Shown: positions 28,170-48,045, counted from the stretch's first letter. The stretch is DNA of 52,868 nt from Candidatus Latescibacterota bacterium (GCA_022822565.1 JAJEAX010000047.1:1-52868), one strand, 5' to 3'. Notes: a model not told the origin generated them from the sequence alone. Program-made: numbers and translations.

Positions 28170-28175
28170 GAAGTC

Positions 28176-30146: not shown

Positions 30147-30417
30147 GTTAGTCCTCTGGCTTTTGCTTCAGTTTGATGAATCTTCATTCAGTGTTGGTAG
30201 GGAACCTGCCATTGCCTGACGAATTCGGGTTAGATTCCCAGGCCTCAACTGATGCAAATAGCAGGATGAAACAGGAAGCTTCCAACCCATAAAGCACGAG
30301 TCATATGGAAACTTCGAGTAATGAATGATGTCGAGATCCCACGGCCCTGGAGCAGGGCAAAAAACCATTGAGTGAACACGATACGAATTTCTTCTTGATT
30401 TTTTTGTTATCTATGAG

Positions 30418-30429
30418 TTATCATGATAA
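30418..30429. promoter_or_regulatory. perfect 12-bp palindrome TTATCATGATAA, candidate LTTR operator half of cassette A
   Basis: The palindrome was read directly. The related sequence TTATCATAATAA occurs at the equivalent place in cassette C (41258-41269). Confidence 0.45.
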
Positions 30430-30484
30430 AAGCAAAATAAATATGAACTAGTGATAAACAAAATTGATAATTTAAATAGAATAA

Positions 30485-30676
30485 ATGCGCCAATCGAATA
30501 GGTCAAAATTCAAGCTGGAAACCGACTTGATCTGTCTCCGCTCCCTGGTCGCAGTAGTGGAAGAAGGTGGTTTCTCGGCAGCGGCGAAACGGATCCATCG
30601 CACACAATCCGCAATCAGCCTTCACGCCAAGCTGGAGGAGCGGTTGAACACAAAGCTCCTGGAGCGGACCAGTTGA
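30485..30676 (+). pseudogene. lysR 5' fragment (HTH domain only, 63 codons, premature TGA)
   Basis: It matches the intact lysR N-terminus except for a 3-nt in-frame deletion (SLQIAKLEE becomes SLHAKLEE) and a CGA-to-TGA change after ..LLERTS. Homology continues out of frame to 30771. Confidence 0.8.
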
Positions 30677-30814
30677 TCCATAGCTGTTACCCTATCTGGT
30701 GAAACTTTTTTGAGCTATGCTCGCCGGATTCTCGAACTGGCCGACGAGGCGGTCCTATCCGTTACTGCACCGACAGTGGGGCGAAGTATAAGCCGTATAG
30801 AGGAAAAGCGGAAC

Positions 30815-32455
30815 TCAGAACTTGGAAACCTTGAGTTCCTTTCCGGTTATGAATTCCAGTAGTGCCGGAACGCCTTCTTTCGTCTGCGCGATTCCTCTCC
30901 TGATGGCTGGAATAATATCCTCCGGTTTCTCCACCCGTTCACCATATCCTCCAAATGCTTTTGCCATATCCGCGTAGTTGCCGGAGATATCCGTGCATCC
31001 GAATTTCTCCTGAGAGACCTGCATAATGGGGATCTCACAGGCCATTGAAAAGTTATTAAACAGAATCGAGAGGATGGGTATCTCCTCTCTCACCGCCGTC
31101 TCGAAGTCCATTCCCGTGAAGCCGATCGCGGCATCTCCCCACACGTTGATACAAAGCTTATCCGGTTTGACCAGCTTCGCGCCCATCGCAAGTCCCAGAC
31201 CGTAGCCCAGTTGCGTGGTTTTGCCCCATCCAATGTAAGAGAGCGGCTCTGTTGCCTGCCAGAAAGGAGACAGTTGGTCGCGGGGGCTACCGGCATCATG
31301 GGTAATAATCGTGTTCGCGACGTCCACGGTGTGCAAGAGATCCCAAATGACTCGGTAGGGTGTGAGAGGGACTTCGTTTGAGGTCAACTTTGAGGTCCAT
31401 TCCGCCATCCACCCCTCCCGGATCTCTCTGATCTGTCCGGAGACCTTGTCAGCAAGTCCTCGAGGTTTTCCATTCAGACGATCCGAGACAGCTTCAAGCA
31501 GCGCTTCAAGCGTTAGCCGGGCATCACCAATCAGCGGGACCTCCGTTTCCACATCCTTGTTGATATCGGCGGGATCAACTGTTGCATGTACGAAGGTTTT
31601 CCCTGCTGGCATGGCAAGGCCGTATTGGGTCCGCGTAAAGCTACAGCCAATTCCGAATATCACATCCGCGTTCTGAAGAAAATCGTGAACGGCTTTGGGC
31701 ACCGTGCGGCCACCGGACCCGAGCGAGAGCGGATGGTTCTCCGGGAAAGAACTCTTGCCCCCCAAACTGGTTGTAACCGGCACCTCCAGCAGTTCTGCAA
31801 GCTCTTTCAGCGCATCCCAGGCCTTAGCGTAATGCACTCCTTGGCCCACGTAGAGCAAGGGTCGCTCAGCGTTGATCAAAATCTCTGCCGCCTTGTCCAC
31901 AGCTTTCGGGTCTGGACCGTACTTCGCCGATGTAGCAGGTCGATAGTCTATCGGTTCGGGGACCTCATCCGGTCCTGTGAGCAGATCTTCCGGGGTTTCC
32001 ACAAGCGCAGGTTGGGGACGTCCGTTTTTGACGGCGGAAAACGCCCTCCGCAGAACTTCGGGCACCGTTTCGGCCTGGTTGATCTGTTCGCACATTTTCG
32101 TTACGTGCTGAAAGTTGAGAAGAGCGCTAAAATTGGGCTTGGTGTTGGTCAACTGGCGAGTGTATCCCCTCGGTAGAACGATAATGGGAGAGGACTCCCC
32201 GTACGCCTGCGCGACGCCGCCAAAGGCGTTTTCCACCCCTGGACCGCTTTGCATACAAAAAACGCCGATTTTCTCGCCGGATGTAATGCGACTGACCGCA
32301 TCGGCCATGTGCAGCCCGATCCGTTCCTGGCGGCAAATGATGGGGCGAATTCCAACCTTCGCGGCCGCGTCAATAAGCGGATTTACAGGGTAGGCGAATA
32401 GAATCTCGGAGCCCTCTTCTTTCAGAATGTGTGCAATTGCATCAACTACTAACAT
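30815..32455 (-). CDS. thiamine-pyrophosphate-dependent enzyme (acetolactate synthase-like fold)
   Basis: The N-terminal Pyr domain reads FAYPVNPLIDAA..RQERIGLHMADAVSR..SGPGVENAFGG. The C-terminal PP domain has a GDAAIGF..N TPP motif. AAGGAG precedes ATG 32455. Confidence 0.8.
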   Translation of the reverse strand: MLVVDAIAHILKEEGSEILFAYPVNPLIDAAAKVGIRPIICRQERIGLHMADAVSRITSGEKIGVFCMQSGPGVENAFGGVAQAYGESSPIIVLPRGYTRQLTNTKPNFSALLNFQHVTKMCEQINQAETVPEVLRRAFSAVKNGRPQPALVETPEDLLTGPDEVPEPIDYRPATSAKYGPDPKAVDKAAEILINAERPLLYVGQGVHYAKAWDALKELAELLEVPVTTSLGGKSSFPENHPLSLGSGGRTVPKAVHDFLQNADVIFGIGCSFTRTQYGLAMPAGKTFVHATVDPADINKDVETEVPLIGDARLTLEALLEAVSDRLNGKPRGLADKVSGQIREIREGWMAEWTSKLTSNEVPLTPYRVIWDLLHTVDVANTIITHDAGSPRDQLSPFWQATEPLSYIGWGKTTQLGYGLGLAMGAKLVKPDKLCINVWGDAAIGFTGMDFETAVREEIPILSILFNNFSMACEIPIMQVSQEKFGCTDISGNYADMAKAFGGYGERVEKPEDIIPAIRRGIAQTKEGVPALLEFITGKELKVSKF

Positions 32456-32495
32456 TGGGTGCTCCTTCTGTTTGCTGGGGTGAATCCAAGAGTTA

Positions 32496-32720
32496 TGCAG
32501 ATCCATTGCGTCCATTTTTCTGCCACAACCCCTTCAGCGCCTGTACGGGTGACATTGGCAGATCGCGCAACTACACCCCGACCGCCTTGTAAATGGCATT
32601 GGCAACCGCAGCAGCAGGCGGCACAATGGGCACTTCACCAACGCCGCTAAACCCGATGCACAAATGCCGCACTGCAATGCCGCATGCTCTAAGAATTACA
32701 CCTTCTTCTGGTTTCGCCAC
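32496..32720 (-). pseudogene. C-terminal fragment of a molybdopterin oxidoreductase (xanthine dehydrogenase / IorB / CoxL family) with an internal TAG
   Basis: ..GFSGVGEVPIVPPAAAVANAIYKAVGV-TAG-LRDLPMSPVQALKGL.. matches the conserved GVGE..PP.APA.ANAI..A.G.R.R.LP tail of this family. No upstream part of such a gene is present. Confidence 0.55.
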
Positions 32721-32748
32721 AGGACGACCTCTCCGCTCAGATCGACCA

Positions 32749-33840
32749 TCAAAACACGATGAGTCCACGAGCGACCTCTCCCGCAGCCAGAGATCGGAAA
32801 GCCTCGTTCGCCTCTTCCAGAGAATAGCGATTGGTAATCAGCTCATTGATCTTCAGCCGACCTGCCAGGTACAGTTCCACCATTCTGGGAAAATCGTCCC
32901 GCACCTTTGCACTTCCGTACTTACATCCCCTGAGGACCCGTTCGTTGGCTTGCAGTTCTCCTGTGTCAAACGTAACGGTTGAACCTGTCGGGGGAAGACC
33001 GATCATCACGGCGACGCCTCCAGGGGCGAGGCATTTCCACGCCTGATTGATCACGCTCGCCTCACCGACTGCAATAAAGGCGTAATCCGCGCCTCTACCC
33101 GTAATATCCCAGATCGCTTCGACCGGGTCGTCCTGTGACGCATCGATACCGTGCGAAGCCCCTAACGACTGCGCGTACTCCAGCTTCTTCTCATTTATAT
33201 CCACCGCAATTATCGGGTGTGCAGCGACAAGTGACCCTCCTTGAACGACATTGAGCCCAATCCCGCCTACGCCGAAAACCGCCATACTGGCACCCGGAGG
33301 AACGGAGGCCGTATTCATCACGGCACCTACGCCTGTCATCACCGAACAACCGATGAGCGCCGCTTCTTCCAGTGGCATATCATTGCGAATTGGAATGGCA
33401 CAACCTGACGGAACGACGGAATAGGACGCATAAGACGCCACATGACCGTAGTGATAAACAGGCTTTCCTTTGAGCGTCATTCGGGTCGTCCCGTCCAGAA
33501 GCGTGCCGCGTTCGGGTGCCACGCGCTCACAAAGCTGCGATCTGCCCGTTACGCAGTAGTGACACTCGCCGCAGGTAGGGGCCCAGGAGAGAACCACGTG
33601 ATCACCCGGTTTCAGATTTCGAACTCCGGATCCGACTTCCTCCACGACGCCCGCCCCCTCATCCCCTAACACGATTGGCATGGGAAATCCCCTCCAACTC
33701 CCGTCAGCCGTGTGGAGACAGCTGTGGCACACGCCGCTCGCGGCCATTCTCACAACCACCTCGTCTTCCTTTGGAGGAGCAAGTTCCACATCCTCGACCT
33801 CAAGAGGATGTCCGGGTTCGAACAGAATCGATGCCTGCAT
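32749..33840 (-). CDS. zinc-dependent alcohol dehydrogenase (MDR family)
   Basis: ASGVCHSCLH, GDEGAGVVEEVG and CGECHYCVTGRSQLC are the catalytic and structural Zn motifs, and GVGGIGL is the cofactor motif. GGGAGG precedes ATG 33840. Confidence 0.9.
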   Translation of the reverse strand: MQASILFEPGHPLEVEDVELAPPKEDEVVVRMAASGVCHSCLHTADGSWRGFPMPIVLGDEGAGVVEEVGSGVRNLKPGDHVVLSWAPTCGECHYCVTGRSQLCERVAPERGTLLDGTTRMTLKGKPVYHYGHVASYASYSVVPSGCAIPIRNDMPLEEAALIGCSVMTGVGAVMNTASVPPGASMAVFGVGGIGLNVVQGGSLVAAHPIIAVDINEKKLEYAQSLGASHGIDASQDDPVEAIWDITGRGADYAFIAVGEASVINQAWKCLAPGGVAVMIGLPPTGSTVTFDTGELQANERVLRGCKYGSAKVRDDFPRMVELYLAGRLKINELITNRYSLEEANEAFRSLAAGEVARGLIVF

Positions 33841-34151
33841 AGGTTCCCTCCCTTCGCTTAATGAGTGGTATGGGATGCGACCCGTCATAAAGCCCAGCGT
33901 AAGCGCGAAAAGATGCGCCGACAGGGCTTTGCCGGTCCGGCGATGTTGCCTATTCAAGAGTTGGAATACAGCGATTTCCGCGAATCGTTGGCAGCATTGG
34001 AAGAAGAATTCAAAGTACACGGAGAGGAATAGATGCTCGTCCAGTCGGACAACGGATCATAGCAAGGCTCAAGCATGTCTGGGCCCTCTCGACACCAAAC
34101 AGAAAACAGGCGTCGACCGGTTGTGGGAGATCACACGTCCGTCGCCCGTTT

Positions 34152-35222
34152 TCACATTTTTCCGATCCCAAATCCAACCGTCACCATATGAACATCACCC
34201 AATCGGTTGAAGTCAATATACGAGTAATCGACTGAAATCGACATCTTGTCCCGAGCGAGTCGAAGGCCGCCACCCGCCGTCAGGCCTTCTTCGTCATAGT
34301 TGAAGCGGTAGCCGCCCCGGATGTAGGCGAGTTTCTGGAATGCATACTCGGCACCGAAATTGAGCTTCTGATCCCCATCGTTCGGATGAGTGAACTCGGC
34401 GGCGAGCGTAAACAGATGCGGATTGCCACCAACCTGCTCCAGAATATCCATGGCCACGCCCAGCTTGAACACCATGGGCATACGAACCGAGGACGGTGTG
34501 ATCTGGATTTGCTCGTCGTACTTGGTAAACTCGGTATCCGGACCGAAGTTCTGTCCCAGCATCGCGATTCGCAGGCTCTTGATACCTGTGTGATAGTAGG
34601 TACCGATATCAATCGCCCAATTGCTGGTGCTGGCTCCGTCGAGCGTTTCCTGGAAATACTTCACGGTCCCACCAACCTGCAGGCGATCCGTGATCCTTTT
34701 TGCGTAGTTCACACCAATGCCGAAATCGCTGGCACTGAATGTGCCGAGGCCCGAAATCACGGGAGCGGTTCTTCCAAGAGTCTCTCCGCCTGGACCAAAC
34801 TGCTCTACGTTTTCCGTCCTCTCCATGTCACCATAGTCGAGCGTGATCAGAGAGATGGCAAAGGTACCCCAACCTTCAACGTTCAGGGCCGCAGCACCGG
34901 AGTAGTAGTTAATGTCAGCGATCCAACTCATGTGGCTTCCGGAAACGCTGATGTTCTCGATGTCTGAAATCACGGCGGGATTGGAGAGTGCACCATTTGC
35001 ATCGGCACCGCCGATCACTGTTGAGATGCCTCCCATTGACGCCACTCGTGCGGATGTTGGTAGCTTGAAAAACTGCCACCCCGATCGTCCCACGCGGCTG
35101 TAGGGCAGGGCTTTGATTCCACGGCCCACTTCCGCTTCATAGATCCGATCCTGCGCAAGAATTTCACTTGTAGACCCGGTCACAAGCAATAGGATCAGTA
35201 CAGGCGACCATTTGAATCTCAT
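34152..35222 (-). CDS. PorV/PorQ-like outer-membrane beta-barrel protein
   Basis: It has a signal peptide, then TSARVASMGGISTVIGGADANGALSNPAV (a PorV-family N-terminal motif as I recall it). Alternating beta-strand sequence follows and ends in an aromatic-rich C-terminus. Confidence 0.65.
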   Translation of the reverse strand: MRFKWSPVLILLLVTGSTSEILAQDRIYEAEVGRGIKALPYSRVGRSGWQFFKLPTSARVASMGGISTVIGGADANGALSNPAVISDIENISVSGSHMSWIADINYYSGAAALNVEGWGTFAISLITLDYGDMERTENVEQFGPGGETLGRTAPVISGLGTFSASDFGIGVNYAKRITDRLQVGGTVKYFQETLDGASTSNWAIDIGTYYHTGIKSLRIAMLGQNFGPDTEFTKYDEQIQITPSSVRMPMVFKLGVAMDILEQVGGNPHLFTLAAEFTHPNDGDQKLNFGAEYAFQKLAYIRGGYRFNYDEEGLTAGGGLRLARDKMSISVDYSYIDFNRLGDVHMVTVGFGIGKM

Positions 35223-35249
35223 TGTACGCCTCCTTGTGTATCTGGATGC

Positions 35250-37328
35250 TTATCGAAGAATCACGAATTTCCCTATGTGGGACTCACCTTCGTGACCCGC
35301 CACATGGGAGGTAAGGTGATAGATATAGACCCCAGCAGCGGGAATCGCCGAAAAGTCAGTCCGCAGATAAGTGCCTGTTGATTGGCTGCCCCAGGTCGCT
35401 TCCCCAAAGGCATCGTGATGGATGGTCTTCACGAGATCCCCCGCCATCGTGTAGATACGAATGGTACACTGTGCGGGGATATTTACAAACGCCAGCCGAT
35501 TGTTCTGCGAAGCATCCAGGAAGCCGCTCCGCTGTCGAAATGGATTTGGAACAACTCGGATCGCTGCAAAATCATTGCTTGGTGCTCGTGGCGCCTCGAT
35601 AGCAAAAAAACTGTAAGCTGTCAGTCCACTTTCGAGTCCGTGTGTATCGTAAGAAGTCACTCCGTACCGGTAGGGGATTCCAGCTTCTGCCGTAAACCGA
35701 TAGGCAATCTTGTCCCCACTCCGGAACGCTTCAGCCTCGGCCTTGGTGAGGTCCTCCACGAGGACCCATGGCCCCGTGATGTGAATCTGGGATTGGTAGA
35801 CTCTGTATCCGGCGAAATCATCTTCTCCGGTGCCAGGATCCCGATAACTGTCCGGTACGGCCTGCCAAGTGAGATCGACCCCCTGAGACCTCGATGCGGC
35901 ATCGGCGAACGGTTCAACCTCCAGCTTGGGTTCACCGTCGATAACAAATGGGGGTGTGCCCACAGTCGGCGGCGGATACGCATCCTTCGGCAGCTTGAAG
36001 TCGTTTGCAATCAGCTCCAATGCAGCATCATAGTTGGCTTTGAAGGCAGCGATGCCCTGCTCCTGGAACACCTGGGTGGCATTAAGACCACCCAACTGGC
36101 TGATATTCCTGTCCATTTCCCCGAAGCAATAGATGGCGATCCACTCAATCTCATCGCCAGGCTGCAGGTCGAATGGGCCAATGTAGGAATAGAGCATTGG
36201 AGAGCGCTCAAAAAGACTCCCATCCACGGACCCATCCTTGGGACGGCTCGGATCATTCCACAGATCGCGCCAATTCGCCCGTTCCTGATCGTGGGAAAGA
36301 GCCCTTTGCCGTTGTTCAAGGCTGCCGCCGCCTCTCAGTAGACCAAATTCGTGGGGAGGGATGGTAATATCGCTGTTGCGCCCTCGATTGGAATTGTTCA
36401 AGACTTCAACAGCAGACAAGATGTTGTAATGCACCTTATCCGGAACCGGCATCCCATTGTAGGTCAGGTTTTCAACCCCCCACCCTCTGACCTCGGGGTC
36501 ATAGAGCCTGCGATCAAGCGAACCGGCCTCGGTGATGTTCCCCGGATCGCCCGCATCGCCCGTCGTATTCCCCGGGGGCTGGTAGATGTCAAACGCAGTT
36601 GGTGCTGCCTCGCCTCTCAGCCACTGGACATCGTCATAGAACATGAAGACTTCGCGATCCGGATCCCACTGATACTCCATATCGTTCAAAAACTTAAAAA
36701 TATTGTTTTCCAGCTCTCCATATTGGACCTGGGCAGGCATGTTGTAGTAGAAATCGGTAAAAGGGACGTCATCCACATTCTTCAACTTTATCTTGTGAAT
36801 GACGAAATCGTCATACTTTGGGACGCTCCAAGCCATGGACTTGGTGGTAATCAGAACCGCGCCTTGTGGCAGATCCGGTGCTGTACTCTGCTGCTTGAAC
36901 GTCTGGAAGACACCTTCTCCCCATTGCTCAGCTTCGTTAATCCCGCCGTCACCAGCGAAATTGTAGTTATTATGCAGGGTAAAAGGAATCTGCGCTCCAC
37001 CATACGACCCGATATTTCTCTCCTCGAGGTTGATATAGGCGTTCTCCCCCTGGTTTACAAACATGATGAAAGGGGCGATCATATCAATTTGATCGGGTGC
37101 CTCGTAGTAGCCCGGATAGGACATCACGTTGGGTATGTAGGTTTCCGCATAGTTGGCGCCGCAGCTCGTGCCGTACCACAGCCGACCAACTGTGATCGGA
37201 AAGGAAGAATTCGGGACTAGCTGGCCTTCCGGTACTGCGTTCGTGGGCAATTGAGCACTTCCCTTTCCAGGCAGGAGGAGAATCATGCACAGCGTCCAGA
37301 GAAGGATATGTGCGCGAATTGGTATCAT
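35250..37328 (-). CDS. secreted protein with an FN3-like module and a T9SS C-terminal sorting domain
   Basis: The signal peptide is MIPIRAHILLWTLCMILLLPGKGSA. The FN3-like segment reads DLTWQAVPDS..FAGYRVYQS. The C-terminal ~90 aa, VVPNPFRQ..CTIRIYTMAGDLVKT..GVYIYHL..GKFVILR, resemble a Por secretion tail. Confidence 0.7.
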   Translation of the reverse strand: MIPIRAHILLWTLCMILLLPGKGSAQLPTNAVPEGQLVPNSSFPITVGRLWYGTSCGANYAETYIPNVMSYPGYYEAPDQIDMIAPFIMFVNQGENAYINLEERNIGSYGGAQIPFTLHNNYNFAGDGGINEAEQWGEGVFQTFKQQSTAPDLPQGAVLITTKSMAWSVPKYDDFVIHKIKLKNVDDVPFTDFYYNMPAQVQYGELENNIFKFLNDMEYQWDPDREVFMFYDDVQWLRGEAAPTAFDIYQPPGNTTGDAGDPGNITEAGSLDRRLYDPEVRGWGVENLTYNGMPVPDKVHYNILSAVEVLNNSNRGRNSDITIPPHEFGLLRGGGSLEQRQRALSHDQERANWRDLWNDPSRPKDGSVDGSLFERSPMLYSYIGPFDLQPGDEIEWIAIYCFGEMDRNISQLGGLNATQVFQEQGIAAFKANYDAALELIANDFKLPKDAYPPPTVGTPPFVIDGEPKLEVEPFADAASRSQGVDLTWQAVPDSYRDPGTGEDDFAGYRVYQSQIHITGPWVLVEDLTKAEAEAFRSGDKIAYRFTAEAGIPYRYGVTSYDTHGLESGLTAYSFFAIEAPRAPSNDFAAIRVVPNPFRQRSGFLDASQNNRLAFVNIPAQCTIRIYTMAGDLVKTIHHDAFGEATWGSQSTGTYLRTDFSAIPAAGVYIYHLTSHVAGHEGESHIGKFVILR

Positions 37329-37450
37329 CTTTCACTCCTTTGTCGAATTTTTCAAAGTCATCGATCCAGGTCAGAGGATGGAGCAAGGTGCCGATTCAGC
37401 ATTGCGCCTGACTTTCCATCCGCATCTTCCCTGACCCCTGATCCCTGTCT

Positions 37451-40400
37451 CTAATACTCGAACGACAGCGAGAAGAAGATCTCCCGCGGCTGCAGATCCG
37501 GCCTCCAGGACAACCACTTATCTTCTTCCGAGAACTCAGCTGAATTGCCGTTCGCATCGAAATACGTCGCTTTGGCCACAGGGAGCTGACCGTCTTTCTC
37601 CATGTAGTTGACCAAGTCCTGCCCGGTGAACAGTCTCAACTGCCTGTTGTTGAACAGATTGTGGATATCCATCGCGAACTCGCTTCTTATTCCATTAGGA
37701 AGACCAAAGCGTTTTAAGAGCCTCATGTTCGTACGATGGTAAGGCTTCCACGTTCGGTTTAATGGCTCCGTGCTGGTGTCTTCTGGAGGATGGTAGGTGA
37801 AGCGTTCCCCAGACGCAAAGGTGTAGTGAATATTCGCATACCAGTCACCAAACGGCCTAAAATTGCCCACCGGGGGACCAAAATCCGGAGGTGTACTAAG
37901 CAGCAAGTTGAGCTTGAGCGTGTTATGCGGGTTCCATGTCTCCAGGTTGCTTTCACTCGCGCCAACTCTAAAATTCGACGGCTCCGGATCTGGCACATCG
38001 GTATTATAGTATGTGTCTCTTCCAAGCTGCGTGGCATTGGCGGGTACGGGCAACCGGGTGATTGTTCCTCCGGTCGTTGGATCGATCGGGATATACAGTC
38101 TTGTTGGCCCATACGCTCCAGTGTTAGAGTAGGAAAGGTCATACTTGATCTGAGCCTGGATATTTCTCCACGCTTTGGTGCTCAGCGTCAACTCGAGCCC
38201 CCGGGCATCGAGAAACCCGCCCGCGAGAGACCATGTGCCCCGATTGGTGAAGTCCTTCTGAGGCGACTGCTTCTGGGGATTCACAGGATCCATAAACAGC
38301 ATGACCTGAGTGGTCTCGTTTGCACCATAGGCATTTTCACGTCCCAACTGGAAGCCGCGCTTTGTCAGGTCCTTTGCGTCCTTGTAAAACATCGTGACGT
38401 CCAGACCAAACATGCCCTTGATGTCCTGGTCGAATCCGACCTCATACTGGATCATCTTCTCGTAGCCGATTTCGATGTTGCCACCTTTTCCGATCCAGTG
38501 GACGTAATTGTAGTCCTCCTCCGGGTGGTAGTCGTAATTCCGGGGCGGCAAATCGCTGCCCGGAAACGAGGTCCCCCGGTTCCAGATCGTCTTGTTTCCA
38601 GCGATCTGCGACCAGCCCGGTCGTTGGTTGAAGTGACCATACATAAAGTGCAGGACGGTGCTCGCCGTGATTGGGTGAGCAATGCCAACTCGTGGCGAAA
38701 GAGCCACCTGAATAGGCGAATCAACCAAGTCGGCCCCTAGATCGGTGATGGAAATGATCCCTCCCACGGTGTTTCCATCTGTCCACTTGGACAACGCATA
38801 GGGATCCCAAATCGTGTAGTTCACTTTCTTGTTCGCACTGAATGCGTCCAGGCGAAGGCCAAGATTCACGACCATACCCTCGGCTTCGATCTGGTCCTGC
38901 AGATACGCATTGAAGTCCCAGGGATTGTGGTCTCGCATCGGCACTTTATTGAAAATCTCCCAATCAGGCCTGAATTGTCCTCCGTGCCATTGGTCGACGT
39001 ATTGCGGCTCGAATGAGAAGCCCGCCTTTAACAGGTTTTTCTCGTTCACCTGGCTGGTTACGTCCAGCTTGAACGTCGTCTTCCAGTTGAAGGCGTGCAT
39101 ACGCGCTCTGTCCACGGGATGCTGTCGCCTGCTGATCACCGTGGACACCGGGCTCGTAGAGAACCACAAAGGTTCCAGCGGTACTGTGTTTCGGTTCAAA
39201 AAGTCTTCATACGTATAGTCAAAGAGTCCTAAATAATGCATGTCATATCGGACCTGGTGGTACTGAACCCGAAACTCCAGGAAGGTCCTCGCACTGAAAG
39301 TGTGTGTCAGCTTCGACATCGCCGTGTGTGTGCGAATGTACTGTGGGGGACGCGACCAGCGATTTCCTCCGTGCAGCACATTCGCCGAATTCATATGCCA
39401 CTTTTCGCGATCGTACGGCGTTTTGACTTCACCGAGCTTGTGATTTCCGGTAACGTGACCGATGTCGTCTGACGACCAGTAAGACATCTTCGGGTAACCG
39501 CTGTTGTCGGTTCCCTGATGGGTATACGATGCCGTGATCTTGGTATTGTCCGTCAGATGGAAGTTGACTTTCCCCAGTAAGCTCCACTCTGGACTGTAGT
39601 TCAATATAGACGGCCACCGGGTGACCCCACGCAGGTACTTGCCGCTGACCAGAAAGTCAGTATTGTTCGTGAGGGGACCAAAGACAGCCGATTCGCCTTC
39701 CCACTGATCCAGGTCGGCGTAATTCCCCATCGTTGGTATGGGGGTTGTCCATTCCTGGTACTTTTGCCAGTTGAATTCGGCGTCAGGCGTGATTCCCTGG
39801 TCTGCCCAGTACTCGAGAGCCGCCGCATTCCATAGATCGGTTCTGTTTTCGAAGAGCTCTCTTGTAACCAGTCGGTGCTCGACGTTTTCCTCGCTAAAGA
39901 TATGCCTGCCCCAATGGTATTTGCCACGCGGGCGCACACGCGCCTTAGCGCTCATATGCCAGCGATCGCGAGCCGAACGCGTCACGATGTTGATAATCGC
40001 GTCGTTCGCCTGACCGTATTCCGCGTTGTATCCACCGGAAAGGACTTCCATTTCCTGGATCGCAGAGGCGTTTGTTACGACAAAGCTGGATTGGGTGAAA
40101 CTGTCGCGCATGTCCACGCCGTCGACCATATAAGCGGCGTTGATGCCAAATCCACCGCGAATCGAGTTTCGGATTCCAACGCCGGATTTCAGCTCTAACG
40201 CTTCTTCCACGGTGTTCGCCCAGCTCAGCTTCATCTCTTCCGTCGTCAAGGTCTGCTTACTGGCGGTCAGGTCACGCTCAACCGGCGGACGCTCGGCTAC
40301 AACCACAATTTCCGACGCCTGCAGAGCCTCTTCGCGGAGATCGAAATTTACTGTCGACGTCTGGTCGATCTTGACGCGTACTTCAGTCTTGGTGATCGTG

Positions 40401-40645
40401 CCGTACCCAACCATCGAAGCCTCGACTTCAAACACACCGGGAGGGACGTTGAGGATGAAGTACCTTCCATCCGGATCCGTTGTAGCACCCAGTCTGAGAT
40501 TGCCCTGAAGCACGACATTCGCACCGGGGAGAGGCTGACCAGAGTCGGCATCCATCACTGTTCCGCTCAGCTTGCCTGTCGTACCTGCGAAAGCCTGGAT
40601 CGGTAGAAAAACCCAGAGACTAAGCAAGACTAAATATCTCTTCAT
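37451..40645 (-). CDS. TonB-dependent receptor with an N-terminal carboxypeptidase-regulatory-like domain
   Basis: The signal peptide is MKRYLVLLSLWVFLPIQAFA. The CarboxypepD_reg segment reads GKLSGTVMDADSGQPLPGANVVL..DPDGRYFILNVPPGVFEVEASMVGY. The plug region reads VEEALELKSGV..IRGG..MVDGVDM. A long barrel ends in ..FFSLSFEY. Confidence 0.85.
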   Translation of the reverse strand: MKRYLVLLSLWVFLPIQAFAGTTGKLSGTVMDADSGQPLPGANVVLQGNLRLGATTDPDGRYFILNVPPGVFEVEASMVGYGTITKTEVRVKIDQTSTVNFDLREEALQASEIVVVAERPPVERDLTASKQTLTTEEMKLSWANTVEEALELKSGVGIRNSIRGGFGINAAYMVDGVDMRDSFTQSSFVVTNASAIQEMEVLSGGYNAEYGQANDAIINIVTRSARDRWHMSAKARVRPRGKYHWGRHIFSEENVEHRLVTRELFENRTDLWNAAALEYWADQGITPDAEFNWQKYQEWTTPIPTMGNYADLDQWEGESAVFGPLTNNTDFLVSGKYLRGVTRWPSILNYSPEWSLLGKVNFHLTDNTKITASYTHQGTDNSGYPKMSYWSSDDIGHVTGNHKLGEVKTPYDREKWHMNSANVLHGGNRWSRPPQYIRTHTAMSKLTHTFSARTFLEFRVQYHQVRYDMHYLGLFDYTYEDFLNRNTVPLEPLWFSTSPVSTVISRRQHPVDRARMHAFNWKTTFKLDVTSQVNEKNLLKAGFSFEPQYVDQWHGGQFRPDWEIFNKVPMRDHNPWDFNAYLQDQIEAEGMVVNLGLRLDAFSANKKVNYTIWDPYALSKWTDGNTVGGIISITDLGADLVDSPIQVALSPRVGIAHPITASTVLHFMYGHFNQRPGWSQIAGNKTIWNRGTSFPGSDLPPRNYDYHPEEDYNYVHWIGKGGNIEIGYEKMIQYEVGFDQDIKGMFGLDVTMFYKDAKDLTKRGFQLGRENAYGANETTQVMLFMDPVNPQKQSPQKDFTNRGTWSLAGGFLDARGLELTLSTKAWRNIQAQIKYDLSYSNTGAYGPTRLYIPIDPTTGGTITRLPVPANATQLGRDTYYNTDVPDPEPSNFRVGASESNLETWNPHNTLKLNLLLSTPPDFGPPVGNFRPFGDWYANIHYTFASGERFTYHPPEDTSTEPLNRTWKPYHRTNMRLLKRFGLPNGIRSEFAMDIHNLFNNRQLRLFTGQDLVNYMEKDGQLPVAKATYFDANGNSAEFSEEDKWLSWRPDLQPREIFFSLSFEY

Positions 40646-40865
40646 TGTGGTTCTCCTCCATCTTGAACTCTGTTGCGAGACCCGATTATCCAGGGTCCCA
40701 GTGGAAACGGCTGACTCTTTAGTTCTGCAGTCTTCTCTCAGTCCGAACAAAGGCAGCCTCCTTTCTTCCCTCTTGATCTGCAGTTAGCGAATCATAGTGA
40801 AATGCAGATGAATTTGTCAAAAGATGGTTTCTCGACGGTGGCGATCGAATCCTTACTTGATCTTT

Positions 40866-40892
40866 AATTATCAATAAGTTTTTATGATAATT
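40866..40892. promoter_or_regulatory. inverted repeat AATTATCA-N11-TGATAATT, candidate LTTR box of cassette B
   Basis: The perfect 8-bp arms were read directly. They contain an ATCA-N11-TGAT dyad, in the T-N11-A style typical of LysR-type regulators. Confidence 0.45.
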
Positions 40893-40945
40893 AAATTATA
40901 CCGCTAAATCTTCGATATAAAAAATTGATAATTAAAATAGATTAG

Positions 40946-41140
40946 ATGAGAAAAAATAATAGATCAAAATTCAAGCTGGAGACCGGCTTGATCTGCCTCC
41001 GCTCGCTGATCGCAGTAGTGGAAGAAGGTGGTTTCTCGGCAGCGGCGAAACGGATCCATCGCACACAATCCGCAATCAGCCTTCATAATCGCCAAGCTGG
41101 AGGAACGACTGAACAAAAGCTCCTGGTGCGGACCAGTTGA
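40946..41140 (+). pseudogene. lysR 5' fragment (frameshifted, premature TGA)
   Basis: A +1 insertion (TTCATAATCGCC versus TTCAAATCGCC) and a later -1 deletion garble codons ~47-58. It carries the same CGA-to-TGA nonsense as copy A. Confidence 0.8.
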
Positions 41141-41225
41141 TCCATAGCTGTTACCCCTTCTGGTGAAACATTTTTGAGCTATGCTCGCCGGATTCTCGAA
41201 CTGGCCGACGAGATTGAGAGGATAT

Positions 41226-41620
41226 GATTTTCTACTTGATTTTTTACTATCTATGAGTTATCATAATAAAAGAAGACAATTTTGGAGTATTGATGACATA
41301 ATTAATATTAATAATTTAAATAAAATAGATGAATAAATTAAATAAATCAAAGTTCAAGTTGGAGACCGACTTGATCTGTCTCCGCTCCCTGGTCGCAGTA
41401 GTGGAAGAAGGTGGTTTCTCGGCAGCGGCGAAACGGATCCATCGCACACAATCCGCAATCAGCCTTCAAATCGCCAAGCTGGAGGAGCGGTTGAACACAA
41501 AGCTCCTGGAGCGGACCAGTCGATCCATAGCTGTTACCCCTTCTGGTGAAACATTTTTGAGCTATGCTCGCCGGATTCTCGAACTGGCCGACGAGGCGGT
41601 CCTATCCGTTACTGCACCAA
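41226..41620 (+). repeat. promoter/lysR cassette, copy C (belongs to the intact lysR)
   Basis: This is the reference copy against which copies A, B and D align. Confidence 0.8.
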
Positions 41621-42300
41621 AGGAAGCAACTCGGCTTCGGATAGGGTTCATGCAATACCTTGCCTCGCAGCATCTACACATCCTGCTTGCCCGTTTTCGG
41701 CGGGCGCATCCAAATTGTGACTTGAGCTTGGCATTCGGTGGGGCGGAGGGGGCGGCGTTGCTCGAGAGAATGGATCGCGGTGAACTGGATGTCGTTTTTG
41801 CTGGTCCAATTACCGAGCGTGGTGGGGCGGCTACCGCTCTGGCGGGCCCCAGAGCAGACAGGAGCAGGGTGCTTTGGGAGGAACCATTGGTTTGGGCGGG
41901 AAATATGAATCGCTCGAATGATCCAGCCGCTCCGATTGATCTGATCCTGTTGTCCCCACCCTGTAGTTTCAGGCAGATCGCTTTTGAAGCACTCACAAAG
42001 ATCGGAACGCCGTGGAGGCTCTCGATTGACGCCAACTCTGTACTGGGGATACAATCCGCGATTCGCGCCGGATTGGGCATCAGCGTGTTGCCACTCTCAG
42101 CTATTGTGGAGGGAATGCCGATTAATGAAGGTGACTTGCCTGAACTCCCGAGAACGTCAGTGATAAGCTACACCAGCGCAGATCAGTCACACCCCTATGT
42201 GCACCGGTTCATTGACTTCCTCCTCGAACGTATGAAGGACAGCTTTAAGGTGAACAAGGATGTTTCATTTGGCGAAAGAAATGCAGTGCCGGAATTGTAA
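41329..42300 (+). CDS. LysR-type transcriptional regulator (only intact copy)
   Basis: The wHTH reads LICLRSLVAVVEEGGFSAAAKRIHRTQSAISLQIAKLEERL. A ~220-aa substrate-binding-like effector domain follows. Confidence 0.9.
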   Translation: MNKLNKSKFKLETDLICLRSLVAVVEEGGFSAAAKRIHRTQSAISLQIAKLEERLNTKLLERTSRSIAVTPSGETFLSYARRILELADEAVLSVTAPKEATRLRIGFMQYLASQHLHILLARFRRAHPNCDLSLAFGGAEGAALLERMDRGELDVVFAGPITERGGAATALAGPRADRSRVLWEEPLVWAGNMNRSNDPAAPIDLILLSPPCSFRQIAFEALTKIGTPWRLSIDANSVLGIQSAIRAGLGISVLPLSAIVEGMPINEGDLPELPRTSVISYTSADQSHPYVHRFIDFLLERMKDSFKVNKDVSFGERNAVPEL

Positions 42301-42305
42301 ATCGG

Positions 42306-42506
42306 CTACTCAAATAGGGGGTAGGTACTGATTGTCGAGTACCGTTCCTGATGACGCCATTTCATCCAAGTTTGGAGTGGACACGCACATGTTGCCGTAG
42401 CAACCCAACACATGTGCATCTGGTCCGCAAAGATGAAGACAATATTGGGAAGTCTTCCCGCATCTGGCTGTTCATGCTGGTCTATCCCCCTGTATAATTC
42501 GCCCAT
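42306..42506 (-). pseudogene. 5' fragment of a sulfatase gene (frameshifted, truncated before the CxPxR motif)
   Basis: GRLPNIVFIFADQM.. is the same as the N-terminus of sulfatase 19079..20485. It then shifts frame (..GCYGN..TPNLDEMASSG readable in another frame) and ends against the lysR stop. Confidence 0.75.
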
Positions 42507-42519
42507 ATAAACAACGTAC

Positions 42520-43512
42520 TCACCGCTTCAACACCTCTGGATTCACAGGAGCGGGAGGCATCTTCCCTTCGAGAGCCGTTAGAACATTCTCCACCGTCAA
42601 TTCACGCATCGTCCTCCGGGTCTCTTCGGTCGCGCTACCGATATGAGGAAAGCAAAGGGCGTTCGGCAGGTCGATAATGGGGTCATTCGGATCCGGGGGC
42701 TCCTTTTCGAACACATCGAGCGCTGCGCCAGCGATTTCTTCAGTTTGCAGTGCACGAACCAGAGCGGCCTGATCCACCAGACCCCCGCGGGCTGTATTGA
42801 TGAGAAAAGCCGACGGTTTCATCCGTTTTAATTCCGGTTCTCCGATCAGGTACCGGGAGGATTCACTCAGATTGGAGTGGAGCGTGACGAAGTCCGATTC
42901 CTCAAGGAGATCGTCCATCTTCCTGTACTCGCTGTCCGGCCCCCCCTCCGGGACAGTGTCGAAAATGTCATACCAGATTGTGCGCATTCGCAGTGCCTGC
43001 ATTCTCCGGGTCACTTCCTGTCCGATCCTCCCGAACCCGACTACACCAAGGGTTTTCCCGTGAATATCCATCCCAAGATCCGGCGCATTCTTTCCGGCGG
43101 ACCAGTTTCCGCTTCGCACATGGATCGCGTTTGGGAAAAGTCGCAAAGCGAGTGCAAAAATCATCGACATCGTGAGATTGGCGACGGCATCTGTAAGCAC
43201 GCCGGGGGTGTGGCAAACCAGAACACCTCGGCGGGAGGCTTCCTCGATGTCAATCGAATCATAACCGACGCTGCACGTGCAGAGAACACGAAGATTTTGA
43301 GCGGCGTCGAAGAATTCACTATCCGCCTTGATTCGTGTGTTACCTATAACGGCATCGACATCACGTACGATTTCCAGAAGTTCATCCCTGCCCGGGAACA
43401 GCTCCAGGACCTGCAATTCGCATGCCTCTCTCAACTGGTCAGTAAGATCGTCTTCCATCACCTTCGGTAATATGAGAACTACCTTTGGACGATTGTTCAT
43501 TCTCATTTCCAT
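42520..43512 (-). CDS. D-isomer-specific 2-hydroxyacid dehydrogenase (glyoxylate/hydroxypyruvate reductase-like)
   Basis: NAD motif GVVGFGRIGQEV, NTARGGLVD, and a catalytic FPHIGSAT His are present. The start is one of three ATGs at 43512, 43506 or 43500. Confidence 0.85.
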   Translation of the reverse strand: MEMRMNNRPKVVLILPKVMEDDLTDQLREACELQVLELFPGRDELLEIVRDVDAVIGNTRIKADSEFFDAAQNLRVLCTCSVGYDSIDIEEASRRGVLVCHTPGVLTDAVANLTMSMIFALALRLFPNAIHVRSGNWSAGKNAPDLGMDIHGKTLGVVGFGRIGQEVTRRMQALRMRTIWYDIFDTVPEGGPDSEYRKMDDLLEESDFVTLHSNLSESSRYLIGEPELKRMKPSAFLINTARGGLVDQAALVRALQTEEIAGAALDVFEKEPPDPNDPIIDLPNALCFPHIGSATEETRRTMRELTVENVLTALEGKMPPAPVNPEVLKR

Positions 43513-43788
43513 CCTATCAGGTGCAGGGATTTGATGTCTAATCCCTGAGGCAGGACACAGCGACCGGCAAATGACTACCTTTGCCTGATCTTGAAGCCTT
43601 TGAAGGTCTTGACTGCATTCATAACTGCCTTTTCGATGTGGATATTCAGTCGCCGGTTGGCCTCGATAGTGACTTTGCCAGGTCCAACAATTTCCCGTAA
43701 TTACGCTCATCCAGCAGTGGTGGATCTGCCGTGTGATAGCCCTCTTGAACCCTCGAACTGTTTGGCCTCCTAGAGATCGGGTTTGAGA

Positions 43789-44529
43789 TTATAAAGGGCG
43801 ACGGGCAATACTGAAGGTTTGCCCGGTGGGCCCGTGGGACGGCTGGGTGGCCAGGAAGAGGGCGAGGGGAACGATGTCGTCGGGGCCTTTGACGTATTCG
43901 CTGGGAGCGAAGGGGGGCGGGCCTCCGACCGTCATCTGGTTCCGGGTGAGGTAGGTGGCCACGGGGCCGGGGATGAGTTCGTTGACGTTTATGCCGTGTT
44001 CCCAGACTTCTTCGGCCAGGCATCGGGTGAACATCCACAGGCCGGCTTTGCCCACGTGGTAGGCGGAGTTGGTAGGGGTGGATTGGTGGCCCATGCCGGA
44101 GCCAGTGTTGATGATGTGCCCGCCGCCGGCCTGGATCATTAAAGGCAGGAGGGCGTGCGTGACCAGATAGACGCTAATGAGATTGGTAGCGACGTCTTTG
44201 ATCCATACTTCAGGATCGCTGTCGAGGATCTGATTTCTTTCGATGCCGCCGCCTGCGTTGTTGACAAGGATATTAATTTTTCCATGCGCTTCCTTGATTT
44301 GTCCCGCCATGGCCTGGACTTGAGCTCTGTCGGTAACGTCGGTGGGAATGGTCAGCACGTTGCGGCTGAGGTCTTGGATTTCACCGGCGACTTCATCCAG
44401 TTGTTCTTTGGTGCGTGCGACGAGGCAGAGGTCGGCGCCTTCACGGGCATAGGCGATGGCGATGGATTTGCCGATCCCGCGGCCACCGCCGGTAACGACG
44501 GCGATTTTTCCTGCGAGTTGATTCGTCAT
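43789..44529 (-). CDS. SDR (paralog of 20568..21299)
   Basis: TGGGRGIGKSIA, NNAG and YHVGK motifs are present. Similarity to the paralog is visible at nucleotide level, and even the antisense shadow ORFs are alike. Confidence 0.85.
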   Translation of the reverse strand: MTNQLAGKIAVVTGGGRGIGKSIAIAYAREGADLCLVARTKEQLDEVAGEIQDLSRNVLTIPTDVTDRAQVQAMAGQIKEAHGKINILVNNAGGGIERNQILDSDPEVWIKDVATNLISVYLVTHALLPLMIQAGGGHIINTGSGMGHQSTPTNSAYHVGKAGLWMFTRCLAEEVWEHGINVNELIPGPVATYLTRNQMTVGGPPPFAPSEYVKGPDDIVPLALFLATQPSHGPTGQTFSIARRPL

Positions 44530-44640
44530 CGGGGACTCCTTTTGCTAGAATACTGAAATGAGGCGCAATTTCTGGTTCCAAGTTTCCGCCACTGGGTCAA
44601 CCCTATTTTTAGTTGAAATAGCTAAGAGTTGTCAGTCAGT

Positions 44641-46242
44641 CTATTCGGATCTTTCAATTTTGTCAGGGGGGATCTCGACCGGATGCCGATAGCCCCTACG
44701 TGCAATGATATTATCCCAGGGCTGGACCTCGCACCGTTTCTCCCAGGCCTGAAAAATGGCCTCCAATTCCTCGACCACTTCAGGATGGACTGCGGCCAGG
44801 TCGCTCAATTCAGTGCGGTCGGCTTCAATATCATACAGTTCCCACTCGTGGAGGTAGTCGCGAACCAGCTTCCACTTTCCTTTCCGCACGGCGCAGTTGC
44901 CTTCGTGTTCCCAAATGAGGTGATCCTTCCCATTGTCCCAGTCATGGAAAATGGGGACCAGACTGGTACCTTCCATCGGAAGAATTTCATTCCCATTGTA
45001 GGTGTCCGGATAGTCGGCGCTTGCGACCTCCACGCACGTGGCCATAATATCGGTCAGTTGGCCGGGCTGGTGGCGCAAAACACCCTTATCGGCAATGTGA
45101 TCGGGCCAGTGTACAATCAAAGGCGTGGAAATGCCTCCTTCATGGACCCAGTGTTTGTACCGGCGAAAAGGCGTGTTGGACACATTGGCCCAGGGCACGC
45201 CGTAGCTCTGAAAGGTATCTTCCGGGCCTGGCATAACCCAAGGATCGTTTACGCTCGCGACAAAACGACCCTCTCTTGTAGTCTGCTGCTTGATTTCTAC
45301 CTTTCCGCCGAGTTCTTCGGCGCATCCCCCGTTGTCGGCCAGAAAAAGAATAAGCGTATTCTCCAACTGACCCGTTTCTTCCAGTGCCTGGACAATACGG
45401 CCAATGCCCTGGTCCATCCGGTCAATCTGAGCCGCGTACACTTCCATCCGCCGTTGTTGCCAGACCTTATGCTCCGCTTCTTCCCAGGGAACCTGTGAAG
45501 GGTCACGTTCGCTCAATGCCCACGCGTCTTTGATAATGCCCATCTTGCGCATGCGCTGCAATCGCTCATCACGCAACTGATCCCACCCGGCCGCAAAACG
45601 CCCTTCGTATTTTTGAATATCCTCACGGTGTGCATGAAGGGGCCAGTGGGGCGCAGTATAAGCCGTATAGATGAAAAAAGGCCTATCGGGTTGTACCCCG
45701 GCATGGGACCGAATATAGTCGGCTGCCTGATCGCTGATGGCGTCCGTCAAAAAGAAATCTTCCGGGAACTGATCCAGTGAAATCTGCGTGTTATCGCGGG
45801 TCAGAGATGGATTCCAGTAATGGGCAAAGCCCCCCAGAATGCCAAAATAGTGATCGAAACCACGCCCGCAGGGCCAGCTGTGTTTGGGACCGTCCGGTTC
45901 AAGATGCCGTGTAACATGCCACTTCCCGCTCATGTAAGTGGAATATCCGGAAGACTTCAAAACTTCTGCAATCGTAACGCTACGCAAGTTGAGATCCCCT
46001 CGATAGCCGTCGTAATCAAAATCGTCCGTCATATGTCCCACACTGGCCTGGTGGGGATGGAGGCCAGTCAGTAGAGAGGCGCGGGTAGGACAGCATCGGG
46101 CGGTATTGTAAAACTGTGTGAACCGAAGGCCGTTTGCAGCCAGCCGGTCCAGATTGGGCGTCTGGACTTCGCCGCCATAGCAGCCCAGGTCAGAATAGCC
46201 CATATCGTCGTCTAAAATGATCAGAATATTAGGTCTGGACAT
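44641..46242 (-). CDS. Cys-type arylsulfatase (S1 family), no signal peptide
   Basis: MSRPNILIILDDDMGYSDLGCYG, CCPTRASLLTG, GKWH and ADNGG motifs are present. GGGAG precedes ATG 46242. The 110-aa upstream extension in the track runs through the repeated promoter region and is rejected. Confidence 0.9.
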   Translation of the reverse strand: MSRPNILIILDDDMGYSDLGCYGGEVQTPNLDRLAANGLRFTQFYNTARCCPTRASLLTGLHPHQASVGHMTDDFDYDGYRGDLNLRSVTIAEVLKSSGYSTYMSGKWHVTRHLEPDGPKHSWPCGRGFDHYFGILGGFAHYWNPSLTRDNTQISLDQFPEDFFLTDAISDQAADYIRSHAGVQPDRPFFIYTAYTAPHWPLHAHREDIQKYEGRFAAGWDQLRDERLQRMRKMGIIKDAWALSERDPSQVPWEEAEHKVWQQRRMEVYAAQIDRMDQGIGRIVQALEETGQLENTLILFLADNGGCAEELGGKVEIKQQTTREGRFVASVNDPWVMPGPEDTFQSYGVPWANVSNTPFRRYKHWVHEGGISTPLIVHWPDHIADKGVLRHQPGQLTDIMATCVEVASADYPDTYNGNEILPMEGTSLVPIFHDWDNGKDHLIWEHEGNCAVRKGKWKLVRDYLHEWELYDIEADRTELSDLAAVHPEVVEELEAIFQAWEKRCEVQPWDNIIARRGYRHPVEIPPDKIERSE

Positions 46243-46514
46243 ACCATCTCCCTTATTCAATCTTCTAATCCCGAAAACCAGGTCCCCCTTCCCGATTCGC
46301 TCAGCACCCGCAGCGTCACCAGGGAAGTCGCCTGACGGCAGGGGCGCCGTTACGAATGACGTCTTTGATCTGGGCACAGAAGGGATCCGGGATCCGCACT
46401 GGCTTCTAGTTTCCGCTGCGAGCCACCCAAAAGGCGTTGCGAAGGTTTCAGATGTACTTGACGTCGGCTCTGGGGATTTGCTAGAGTTATATCGCCGCAA
46501 TCCGTCAGGAAAAG

Positions 46515-46873
46515 CATTGAGTGAACACGATACAGATTTCTTCTTGGTTTCTAACCATCTATAAAATATCATGGTAGAAGAAAGATAATTCTGGACAATT
46601 GATAAAAAAAATAGAAAATTTAAATAGAAAAAATGAGAAAATAAAATAGATCAGATTCAAGCTGGAGACCGATTTGATCTGTCTCCGCTCCCTGGTCGCA
46701 AATGATGGTGACTTGCCTGAACTCCCGAGAACGTCAGTGATGAGCTACACCAGCGCAGATCAGTCACACCCCTATGCGCACCGGTTCATTGACTTCATCC
46801 TCGAACGTATGAAGGACAGCTTTAAGGTGAACAAGGATGTTTCATTTGGTGAAAGAAACGGAGTGCCGGAATC
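46515..46873 (+). pseudogene. promoter/lysR cassette copy D: lysR with a large internal deletion and an early stop
   Basis: 46515-46700 aligns to the cassette 5' part (ATG AGA AAA TAA at 46633, then KLETDLICLRSLVA). It is fused at 46701 to the last ~57 lysR codons (DLPELPRTSVMSYTSADQSHPYAHRFIDF..). Confidence 0.8.
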
Positions 46874-46915
46874 GCTAATACCGCGTGGCGGGATCTCATT
46901 TCAAGCAACAAGCAA

Positions 46916-48038: not shown

Positions 48039-48045
48039 TCACCTC

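Follow-up and report, generated by a model that had tools for sequence, protein, structure and literature searches.

A Latescibacterota catabolic locus that looks like duplicated LysR-type regulator units reduced to a single intact lysR gene

Within a contig of 52,868 nucleotides (nt) from Candidatus Latescibacterota bacterium (GCA_022822565.1, JAJEAX010000047.1), we analyzed a locus at which one lysR promoter/operator region, together with the 5' end of the lysR gene, is present in four copies that we refer to as modules A, B, C, and D. The window is this entire NCBI contig, and our examination of the genome was confined to it. Repeat finding and a self-BLAST of the window both recover the four modules at the positions proposed in a first-pass annotation made from the sequence alone, and together they fit inside 16.5 kb. 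The genes that lie past each module are all on the minus strand, as that annotation described, and its statement that one LysR-type transcriptional regulator (LTTR) promoter/operator region heads three gene clusters is supported. Its further statement that only one lysR gene is intact holds within the contig. The coordinates of the features are collected in Table 1.

The contig holds three regulatory units, all of them in one orientation. In two of these units, an operator/promoter region lies between a minus-strand gene cluster on one side and a divergent lysR relic on the other (cluster A with relic A, and cluster D with relic D). In the middle unit, cluster B is followed by the possible relic B0 and relic B, and then by the operator/promoter region that leads into the intact lysR gene of module C. 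The three clusters begin with unrelated genes.

Table 1. Positions of the modules, lysR sequences, gene clusters, and gene fragments in the window.
Feature	Coordinates	Strand	Details
Module A	30253-30771		
DUF5916 relic	30245-30304	-	19 codons (MTRALWVGSFLFHPAICIS*), on the operon side of module A
Module A intergenic region	30305-30484	n/a	Distal box TTGAT-N9-ATCTATGAG at 30395-30417; promoter-like TTGATT-18-TATCAT; lysR-proximal T-N11-A dyad box at 30460-30480
lysR relic A	30485-30771	+	Codons 1-97; TGA at 30674-30676 (codon 64); one 3-nt deletion
Module B	40843-41212	+	Spacer with boxes at 40857-40878 and 40921-40941, then lysR relic B
lysR relic B	40946-41212	+	Codons 1-89; +1 and -1 indels; TGA at 41138-41140, the same as in A
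Module C	from 41213		
Module C intergenic region	41213-41328		Head-to-tail junction with relic B; boxes at 41236-41257 and 41304-41324
Intact LysR-type regulator	41329-42300	+	323 amino acids; HTH_1 and LysR_substrate
Module D	46510-46879		
Module D intergenic region	46510-46632		Boxes at 46544-46565 and 46608-46628
lysR relic D	46633-46879	+	Codons 1-23 fused to the last ~60 codons; junction at 46700/46701
Possible fifth relic B0	40821-40844	+	lysR codons ~27-34; 20/24 nt, ungapped; present in L147
Cluster A	19079-30146	-	Assigned with Pfam, NCBIfam
Cluster B	30815-40645	-	Assigned with Pfam, NCBIfam; internal gaps of 311 and 293 nt
Cluster D	42520-46329	-	Sulfatase, short-chain dehydrogenase/reductase, D-2-hydroxyacid dehydrogenase
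Alcohol-dehydrogenase scar	28124-28169	-	Ribosome-binding site and first 9 codons (MQASILFEP) of the cluster-B gene; 46 nt, 96% to 33814-33859
Sulfatase-piece scar	30774-30807		34 nt; 32/34 to 45644-45677 (codons 218-229, interior of the cluster-D sulfatase)
Sulfatase 5' scar	42306-42511	-	~60 codons; paralog of 19079-20485 (73% to 20316-20516)

Self-BLAST aligns 30380-30771 of module A with 41221-41618 of module C at 89% identity over 400 nt, 40854-41212 of module B with module C at 86%, modules A and B with each other at 84%, and 30361-30553 of module A with 46510-46700 of module D at 81%. The E-values of these matches range from 1e-24 to 1e-123, which is far past chance. The left ends of modules B, C, and D nearly coincide, ~103-123 nt 5' of the lysR start, and the left edge of module A reaches ~30245, where it takes in a 19-codon stub of another gene. 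In a four-way alignment, modules A and D disagree at 2 nt of the operon-side block CATTGAGTGAACACGATAC..ATTTCTTCTTG, the core reads CTTGAT in A, B, and C and CTTGGT in D, and the modules have the AT-rich spacer that the first-pass annotation reported. The box AAAATTGATAATTTAAATAGA that it placed directly 5' of each ATG gives four matches at three or fewer mismatches, with none expected by chance.

The intact lysR gene has both domains of an LTTR (PF00126, 4.4e-20; PF03466, 4.6e-26), aligns over its full length with its orthologs, and lies divergent to minus-strand cluster B, the arrangement in which LTTR genes are found. Orthologs with 56-68% amino acid identity are present in Verrucomicrobiota, Kiritimatiellales, Calditrichia, Pseudovibrio, and other groups, where the lysR gene is divergent to a gene for a zinc-dependent alcohol dehydrogenase, an enoyl-CoA hydratase, an MRJP-like protein, or a DUF5916 protein. 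When the intact gene is compared with its counterpart in L148, a contig from another species, the differences fall at the three codon positions in the numbers 42/31/103, a third-position bias. The differences between the relics and the intact gene are spread evenly across codon positions. We take the intact gene to be under purifying selection relative to L148, and the relics to be decaying.

The modules had been described as carrying lysR 5' stubs. This is correct for modules A and B, which have one CGA-to-TGA nonsense codon in common (30674 and 41138), and incorrect for module D, which retains the 3' end of lysR as well. The 3' part of relic D, 46701-46879, matches 42124-42302 at 94%, and it is followed by ~5 nt of ancestral 3' flank in common with L148 and with L022, a Latescibacterota metagenome-assembled genome. 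Because relic D retains both ends of lysR, it was formerly a whole gene that has been internally deleted. Its lesions are an internal deletion of ~720 nt, a TAA at codon 4, a 1-nt deletion, and loss of the stop codon. A strong bidirectional terminator-like hairpin lies just past relic D at 46914-46948, and no equivalent is found after the intact lysR gene. For the possible relic B0, a longer extent was considered and is unsupported (gapped alignment score of 47 versus a shuffle mean of 43), so that only the 24-nt ungapped match stands.

To compare the window with other assemblies, we used three contigs from other samples in the European Nucleotide Archive collection, L150, L154, and L147, which reproduce the junctions of the locus at identities of 99.97%, 99.97%, and 98.5%. 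L150 corresponds to window positions 27433-42455 at 99.97% identity, with four mismatches and no gaps, and spans the A, B0, B, and C junctions. L147, which was compared over 31300-47951, represents a 98.5%-identical strain, is collinear with the window over that range at 96.5-98.7%, and spans B0, B, C, and D. L154 is a 97-kb scaffold that corresponds to 31650-52300 save for one 53-bp patch, and it spans B, C, and D. A contig that is chimeric across near-identical repeats would have been one explanation for the whole locus, since the repeats are 96-98% identical over ~200 nt and L154 shows a B-type patch in copy C that is possibly a repeat-induced error. Given that L150 (A, B, and C), L147 (B0, B, C, and D), and L154 (B, C, and D) together reproduce all of the junctions, we reject a chimeric assembly as extremely improbable. 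The B0, B, and D lesions and their junctions are the same in L147 as in the window; these lesions are therefore older than the split between the two strains.

The ancestral state of the modules can be read from related contigs. L148 and L149 each carry a full-length lysR gene (80% amino acid identity) divergent from a DUF5916 gene. The DUF5916 gene encodes 818 amino acids in L149 and in L022, the latter being the closest DNA match (87%), and it is called as 763 amino acids in L148. L148 aligns with window positions 30253-30771 at 77%, which indicates that module A comprises the whole ancestral intergenic region, 97 codons of lysR, and a 19-codon DUF5916 relic. The start of the DUF5916 protein reads MTRALWVGSFLFHPAICIS* in module A and MARALCVGSTCFILLF... 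in L022. In L022 itself, at 3284-3860, the same promoter is fused straight to lysR codon ~197 beside the intact 818-amino-acid DUF5916 gene, a fusion that we interpret as an independent decay of lysR by 5' deletion.

Fragments of other genes are also stranded at the junctions. The alcohol-dehydrogenase scar sits in cluster A, with the DUF6785 gene on one side and an FAH gene on the other, the sulfatase-piece scar separates relic A from the stop codon of the gene for a thiamine pyrophosphate (TPP)-requiring enzyme, and the intact lysR gene ends 2 nt before the broken sulfatase fragment. Relic D with both of its lysR ends, the DUF5916 stub in module A, and the sulfatase and alcohol-dehydrogenase fragments at junctions argue that whole units were duplicated and then eroded. 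Thus, the locus looks like the product of operon-promoter-lysR units that had been duplicated and subsequently lost parts by deletion, and the lysR stubs would be one class of scar among several rather than the hallmark of a special promoter cassette. We infer both an order of events and the extent of the operons. The ancestor of all units was a simple pair, with a DUF5916 gene and lysR diverging from one intergenic region, that is still intact in related contigs. The units would have multiplied through segmental or tandem duplication and illegitimate recombination, and all copies of lysR but one would then have been lost to deletions, nonsense codons, and frameshifts.

The first-pass annotation had proposed a different origin, in which a cassette of ~400 bp, consisting of the promoter/operator with a hitch-hiking lysR 5' stub, was copied ahead of unrelated operons, so that a regulon was built by promoter propagation. 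Several features would fit such copying: modules B, C, and D start at almost the same point upstream of lysR, modules B and C stand head to tail as in a 383-bp tandem duplication, the TGA common to A and B would be consistent with one stub being a copy of another, and each cluster starts with a gene unrelated to those heading the other two. However, a small cassette with a 5' stub does not account for the lysR 3' end and ancestral 3' flank in module D, for the stub of the ancestral divergent gene in module A, or for the further gene fragments at junctions. The pattern of similarity is not that expected of a simple recent copy either. The spacers of the copies in the window are only 63-82% identical to one another, whereas the coding stubs are 96-98% identical, and for modules B and C the values are 64% in the spacer versus 97% in the coding stretch, which led us to reject a simple tandem duplication for this pair. 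Moreover, no transposase, integrase, or insertion sequence (IS), no inverted repeats flanking the modules, and no target duplications were found in the window. We consider the copied cassette unlikely. A transposable element or miniature inverted-repeat transposable element was ruled out, given the lack of flanking inverted repeats and of a transposase and the differing ends of the copies, and no known structured RNA (riboswitch or leader) matches Rfam at the gathering threshold anywhere in the window.

The uneven similarity of the copies has a bearing on how they have evolved since duplication. Within the window, lysR codons 24-89 are 96-98% identical among A, B, and C, and they are 80-83% identical to those of L148. 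The spacers are 64-75% identical to those of L148, so that the paralogous spacers resemble one another no more than they resemble the L148 sequence, and the same spacer compared between two strains is 94-97% identical. No change in the coding stretch is private to copy C; copies A and B have three or four private changes each, in addition to their common TGA. Four sites (alignment columns 186, 299, 351, and 364) are compatible with no single tree, which points to gene conversion. These data argue for ongoing gene conversion that is limited to the coding homology. Conversion with the intact gene and between relics would keep the coding remnants alike while the AT-rich spacers drift apart.

Differences between assemblies fall in the same place. 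Over the 20.6 kb that L154 has in common with the window, all seven differences lie in copy C at 41469-41521, and all of them are to the B-type state. They include a +1 and a -1 indel and the TGA, and the lysR gene of L154 is called as 216 amino acids only. Of the four differences between L150 and the window, two (41491 and 41510) are likewise to the B-type state, and one of these gives the substitution E61V. These patches represent either real pseudogene-templated conversion in the population or repeat-induced assembly error. A more far-reaching interpretation would make the module a recombination-active regulatory cassette, the homology of which lets catabolic clusters be captured or looped out, with conversion from dead copies toggling the master regulator within the population and the stubs being maintained rather than left as debris. 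Under such a population switch, the 53-bp patch of L154, which knocks out copy C, and the two-nucleotide patch of L150 would be examples of the switching. We regard this interpretation as quite improbable.

To examine the regulatory sequences, we aligned the upstream regions of orthologous lysR genes on the start codon and derived a weight matrix from 19 orthologs. The proximal box in these regions reads ...GAT.AGTAAAATTG.T..TT.AAAT.GA-N4-ATG and holds an ATT-N9-AAT / ATTG-N7-CAAT dyad of the T-N11-A type; in L010 and L006 this dyad is perfect. A second, distal box, TTGAT-N8-ATCTATGAG, is present in a subset of the orthologs and is also readable as a TTGAT.-16/17-TA..AT promoter for lysR. The boxes stand at a fixed distance from the start codon in orthologs of Verrucomicrobiota, Kiritimatiellales, Calditrichia, and Alphaproteobacteria. 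The candidate T-N11-A dyad lies at -25 to -11, shows conservation between phyla, and recurs in each of the four copies; in AT-rich DNA, the pattern is a degenerate one. The four modules are the top four matches to the weight matrix in the whole window, with scores of 12.9-23.9 against a background of -38.6 ± 10.7, and each copy retains 14-15 of the 17 high-information columns. Divergence among the paralogs is concentrated in columns that are unconstrained among the orthologs too (rho = -0.54, p = 1e-4). Conservation upstream of lysR orthologs from other phyla thus falls on the very boxes singled out in the first-pass annotation, and these have been kept preferentially in all four copies.

Three of the copies serve no live lysR gene and yet keep these boxes, which suggests that the boxes continue to be used as predicted regulator binding sites for the divergent clusters. 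In the general model of LTTR action, the regulator has a divergent target, binds T-N11-A sites, and frequently acts in trans (PMC11495319). Most probably, the surviving LTTR would then bind all four intergenic copies and co-regulate each cluster in trans, at least as far as its first transcription unit, so that a single LTTR plausibly controls all three clusters. Taken as a whole, we find it reasonably probable that duplicated units were eroded to one lysR gene and that the surviving LTTR acts on the retained operators. The first-pass annotation went further and placed roughly 27 kb under one LTTR. This is an overreach, given gaps of 293-600 nt inside the clusters.

Several observations weigh against the combination of unit duplication, erosion, and control by the one survivor. 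In clusters A, B, and D, the boxes and the first start codon are separated by 210-250 nt, versus ~70 nt in the ancestral pair, so that long leaders or other promoters are needed. A near-consensus sigma-70-like site, TTGACA-18-TATGAT (11/12), on the minus strand at 40820-40791 inside the possible relic B0 is located between module B and the gene for the TonB-dependent receptor, faces that gene, and could drive cluster B alone. The distal box varies, being CTTGGT in D (CTTGAT in strain L147) and CTTTAT in B of L147. With gaps of the size noted above, later genes in the clusters may have their own promoters, and, as one contig of the genome was examined, other intact paralogs may be present elsewhere in it. 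The coverage of L147 is 3x, and errors in it are possible. Finally, no single simple history accounts for the TGA common to A and B or for the strong spacer divergence between modules B and C, which are neighbors.

Alternatively, the copies might be inert debris, with each cluster driven by its own promoter in unique DNA beside its first gene and the LTTR controlling only its own gene and, perhaps, the receptor cluster next to it. In favor of this, the unique leaders extend over ~100-270 nt and are thus long, the site at 40820-40791 is directed at cluster B, the spacers are heavily diverged, and orthologous LTTRs are mostly paired with one gene. Inert copies would not, however, be expected to keep the ortholog-conserved box columns in all four cases while neighboring columns diverged, and module A keeps the complete ancestral divergent promoter region along with a start codon. 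We hold inert debris to be rather unlikely.

The stubs themselves might also be functional, as mini-proteins with only a helix-turn-helix, as decoy operators that titrate the regulator, or as sources of antisense transcripts into a neighboring cluster. Relics A and B do have open reading frames (ORFs) of 63-64 amino acids behind conserved promoter-like and ribosome-binding sequences, and there is no terminator between relic A and the convergent TPP-enzyme gene. An exact match to the stub ORFs was not found in the protein collection. LTTR dimerization requires the wing and the linker helix, and from what is generally known of LTTR structure the products of the stubs would lack both. In addition, relic B has further indel differences between strains, the substitutions are without codon-position bias, and relic D stops at codon 4. 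Functional stubs are thus very improbable.

We also searched for similar stubs in other genomes. No extra stubs were found within 10 kb on either side of orthologous lysR genes in 25 genome loci, a metagenome scan gave no close relatives, and a search with the 97-amino-acid N-terminus returned only contig-end fragments or frameshift-split lysR genes in other lineages. Pseudovibrio sp. Alg231-02 (L016 9765-10396; L024 9765-10396) has a 632-bp duplicate, 99.2% identical, of the orthologous module, in which 48 codons from the divergent gene and 132 codons from lysR flank the intergenic region. It is the same type of module duplicated, but its second copy adjoins an IS6-like transposase ORF (L024 8993-9712, identified by eye from motifs) 95 nt from the contig end, and it heads no new operon within the short stretch available. 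Because it abuts the transposase, we do not take this duplicate for a second case.

The closest precedent for the locus comes from the herbicide-degrading plasmid pJP4. On this plasmid, an insertion element has inactivated tfdT, and TfdR/TfdS act in trans to switch on the orphaned tfdCDEF operon (PMC6449761, citing Leveau & van der Meer 1996), the TfdR/TfdS regulon being made up of several co-localized divergent pairs. The tfd modules of pJP4 (Cupriavidus/Ralstonia JMP134) resemble the present locus in three respects: several homologous LTTR/divergent-operon pairs are co-localized around one catabolic theme, one or more dead regulator copies have their operator retained (here, lesions in A, B, and D with the boxes kept), and an intact paralog takes over, which is proven in pJP4 and is predicted here. 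They differ in that tfdT was broken by an insertion element, whereas the lesions described here are deletions, nonsense codons, and frameshifts, with no IS in the window. Furthermore, three or four copies are dead at the present locus with one survivor, there is evidence of conversion between relics and the live gene, and the host is uncultured and Latescibacterota-like, with genes for sulfated-glycan or deoxy-sugar catabolism. Related LTTRs of aromatic catabolism, such as CatR/ClcR and BenM/CatM, recognize related operators at several catabolic promoters (PMC6449761). Both regulators are intact in those systems, unlike the present locus, where redundancy is down to one.

The reuse of promoters has also been surveyed. 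Putative mobile promoters, defined as homologous upstream regions before non-homologous genes, have been proposed as a route of regulatory rewiring (Matus-Garcia, Nijveen & van Passel 2012; PMC3575422). That survey took regions of at least 80% identity over at least 50 nt within -150 to -50 of non-paralogous genes and discarded cases with similar adjacent coding sequence, so that promoter-plus-stub copies were excluded by design. The modules described here likewise are homologous upstream regions before non-homologous genes in one genome, but they lie further upstream, at ~180-250 nt from the first start codons of the clusters. They also adjoin paralogous lysR sequence, and the gene relics that accompany them suggest that units were duplicated and then decayed. 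The claim of novelty made in the first-pass annotation, that copying a regulator stub with its promoter was an undescribed way of building a regulon, was too strong in view of the published accounts of tfdT (PMC6449761) and of promoter reuse (PMC3575422). Our literature search found no paper that describes regulator stubs as a signature. We see in the locus a well-documented new case in which LTTR-operon units were duplicated and regulators then lost, the relics evolving in concert and control probably being consolidated in a single regulator.

As an assembly-verified example of the consolidation of a catabolic regulon, in which units appear to have been duplicated and regulators lost but one while operators were kept, the locus suggests that one sensor may govern several clusters. 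Regulator stubs, together with other gene-fragment scars, allow histories of this kind to be reconstructed. The conserved boxes provide a testable candidate operator for an uncharacterized LTTR subfamily that is spread over several phyla. The interest of the locus would rise if the B-to-C conversion polymorphism and the trans-regulation are true.

The three clusters encode predicted catabolic and transport functions. Cluster A comprises genes for a DUF6785/6784 membrane protein, an FAH-family hydrolase, a sulfatase, an MFS_2 sugar transporter, an aldo-keto reductase, a second FAH hydrolase, a short-chain dehydrogenase/reductase (SDR), and a second sulfatase. A 600-nt gap at 22188-22787, between the aldo-keto reductase and second FAH hydrolase genes, contains no convincing gene. 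Cluster B encodes a SusC-like TonB-dependent receptor, a 692-amino-acid protein with a PorU-like C-terminus, a PorV/PorQ-family protein, a class-III-like alcohol dehydrogenase, and the TPP-requiring enzyme. The gaps in clusters A and B may hold internal promoters or decayed genes. The cluster-D SDR gene is 77% identical in nucleotide sequence to that of cluster A. By self-BLAST, identity is 77% for the SDR and FAH paralogs, whether compared from cluster to cluster or inside one, and 73% for the sulfatase paralogs; these paralogs, too, speak for an origin from whole units.

Outside the three units, a 113-amino-acid AhpC/TSA ORF at 16589-16930 matches profile positions 45-123 only and is probably truncated. 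L147 has a full 192-amino-acid AhpC-TSA gene at 16900-17478, between deaminase and glycosyltransferase genes, where the window is without a gene. Palindromes of 50-60 nt with 83-84% self-complementarity lie at 18901-18950, just past the end of cluster A, and at 2080-2137, after a sigma-70 family gene, and are probably terminators. Two family-2 glycosyltransferase paralogs at 48006-48729 and 50215-50938 (57% nucleotide identity) flank a radical-SAM/SPASM gene.

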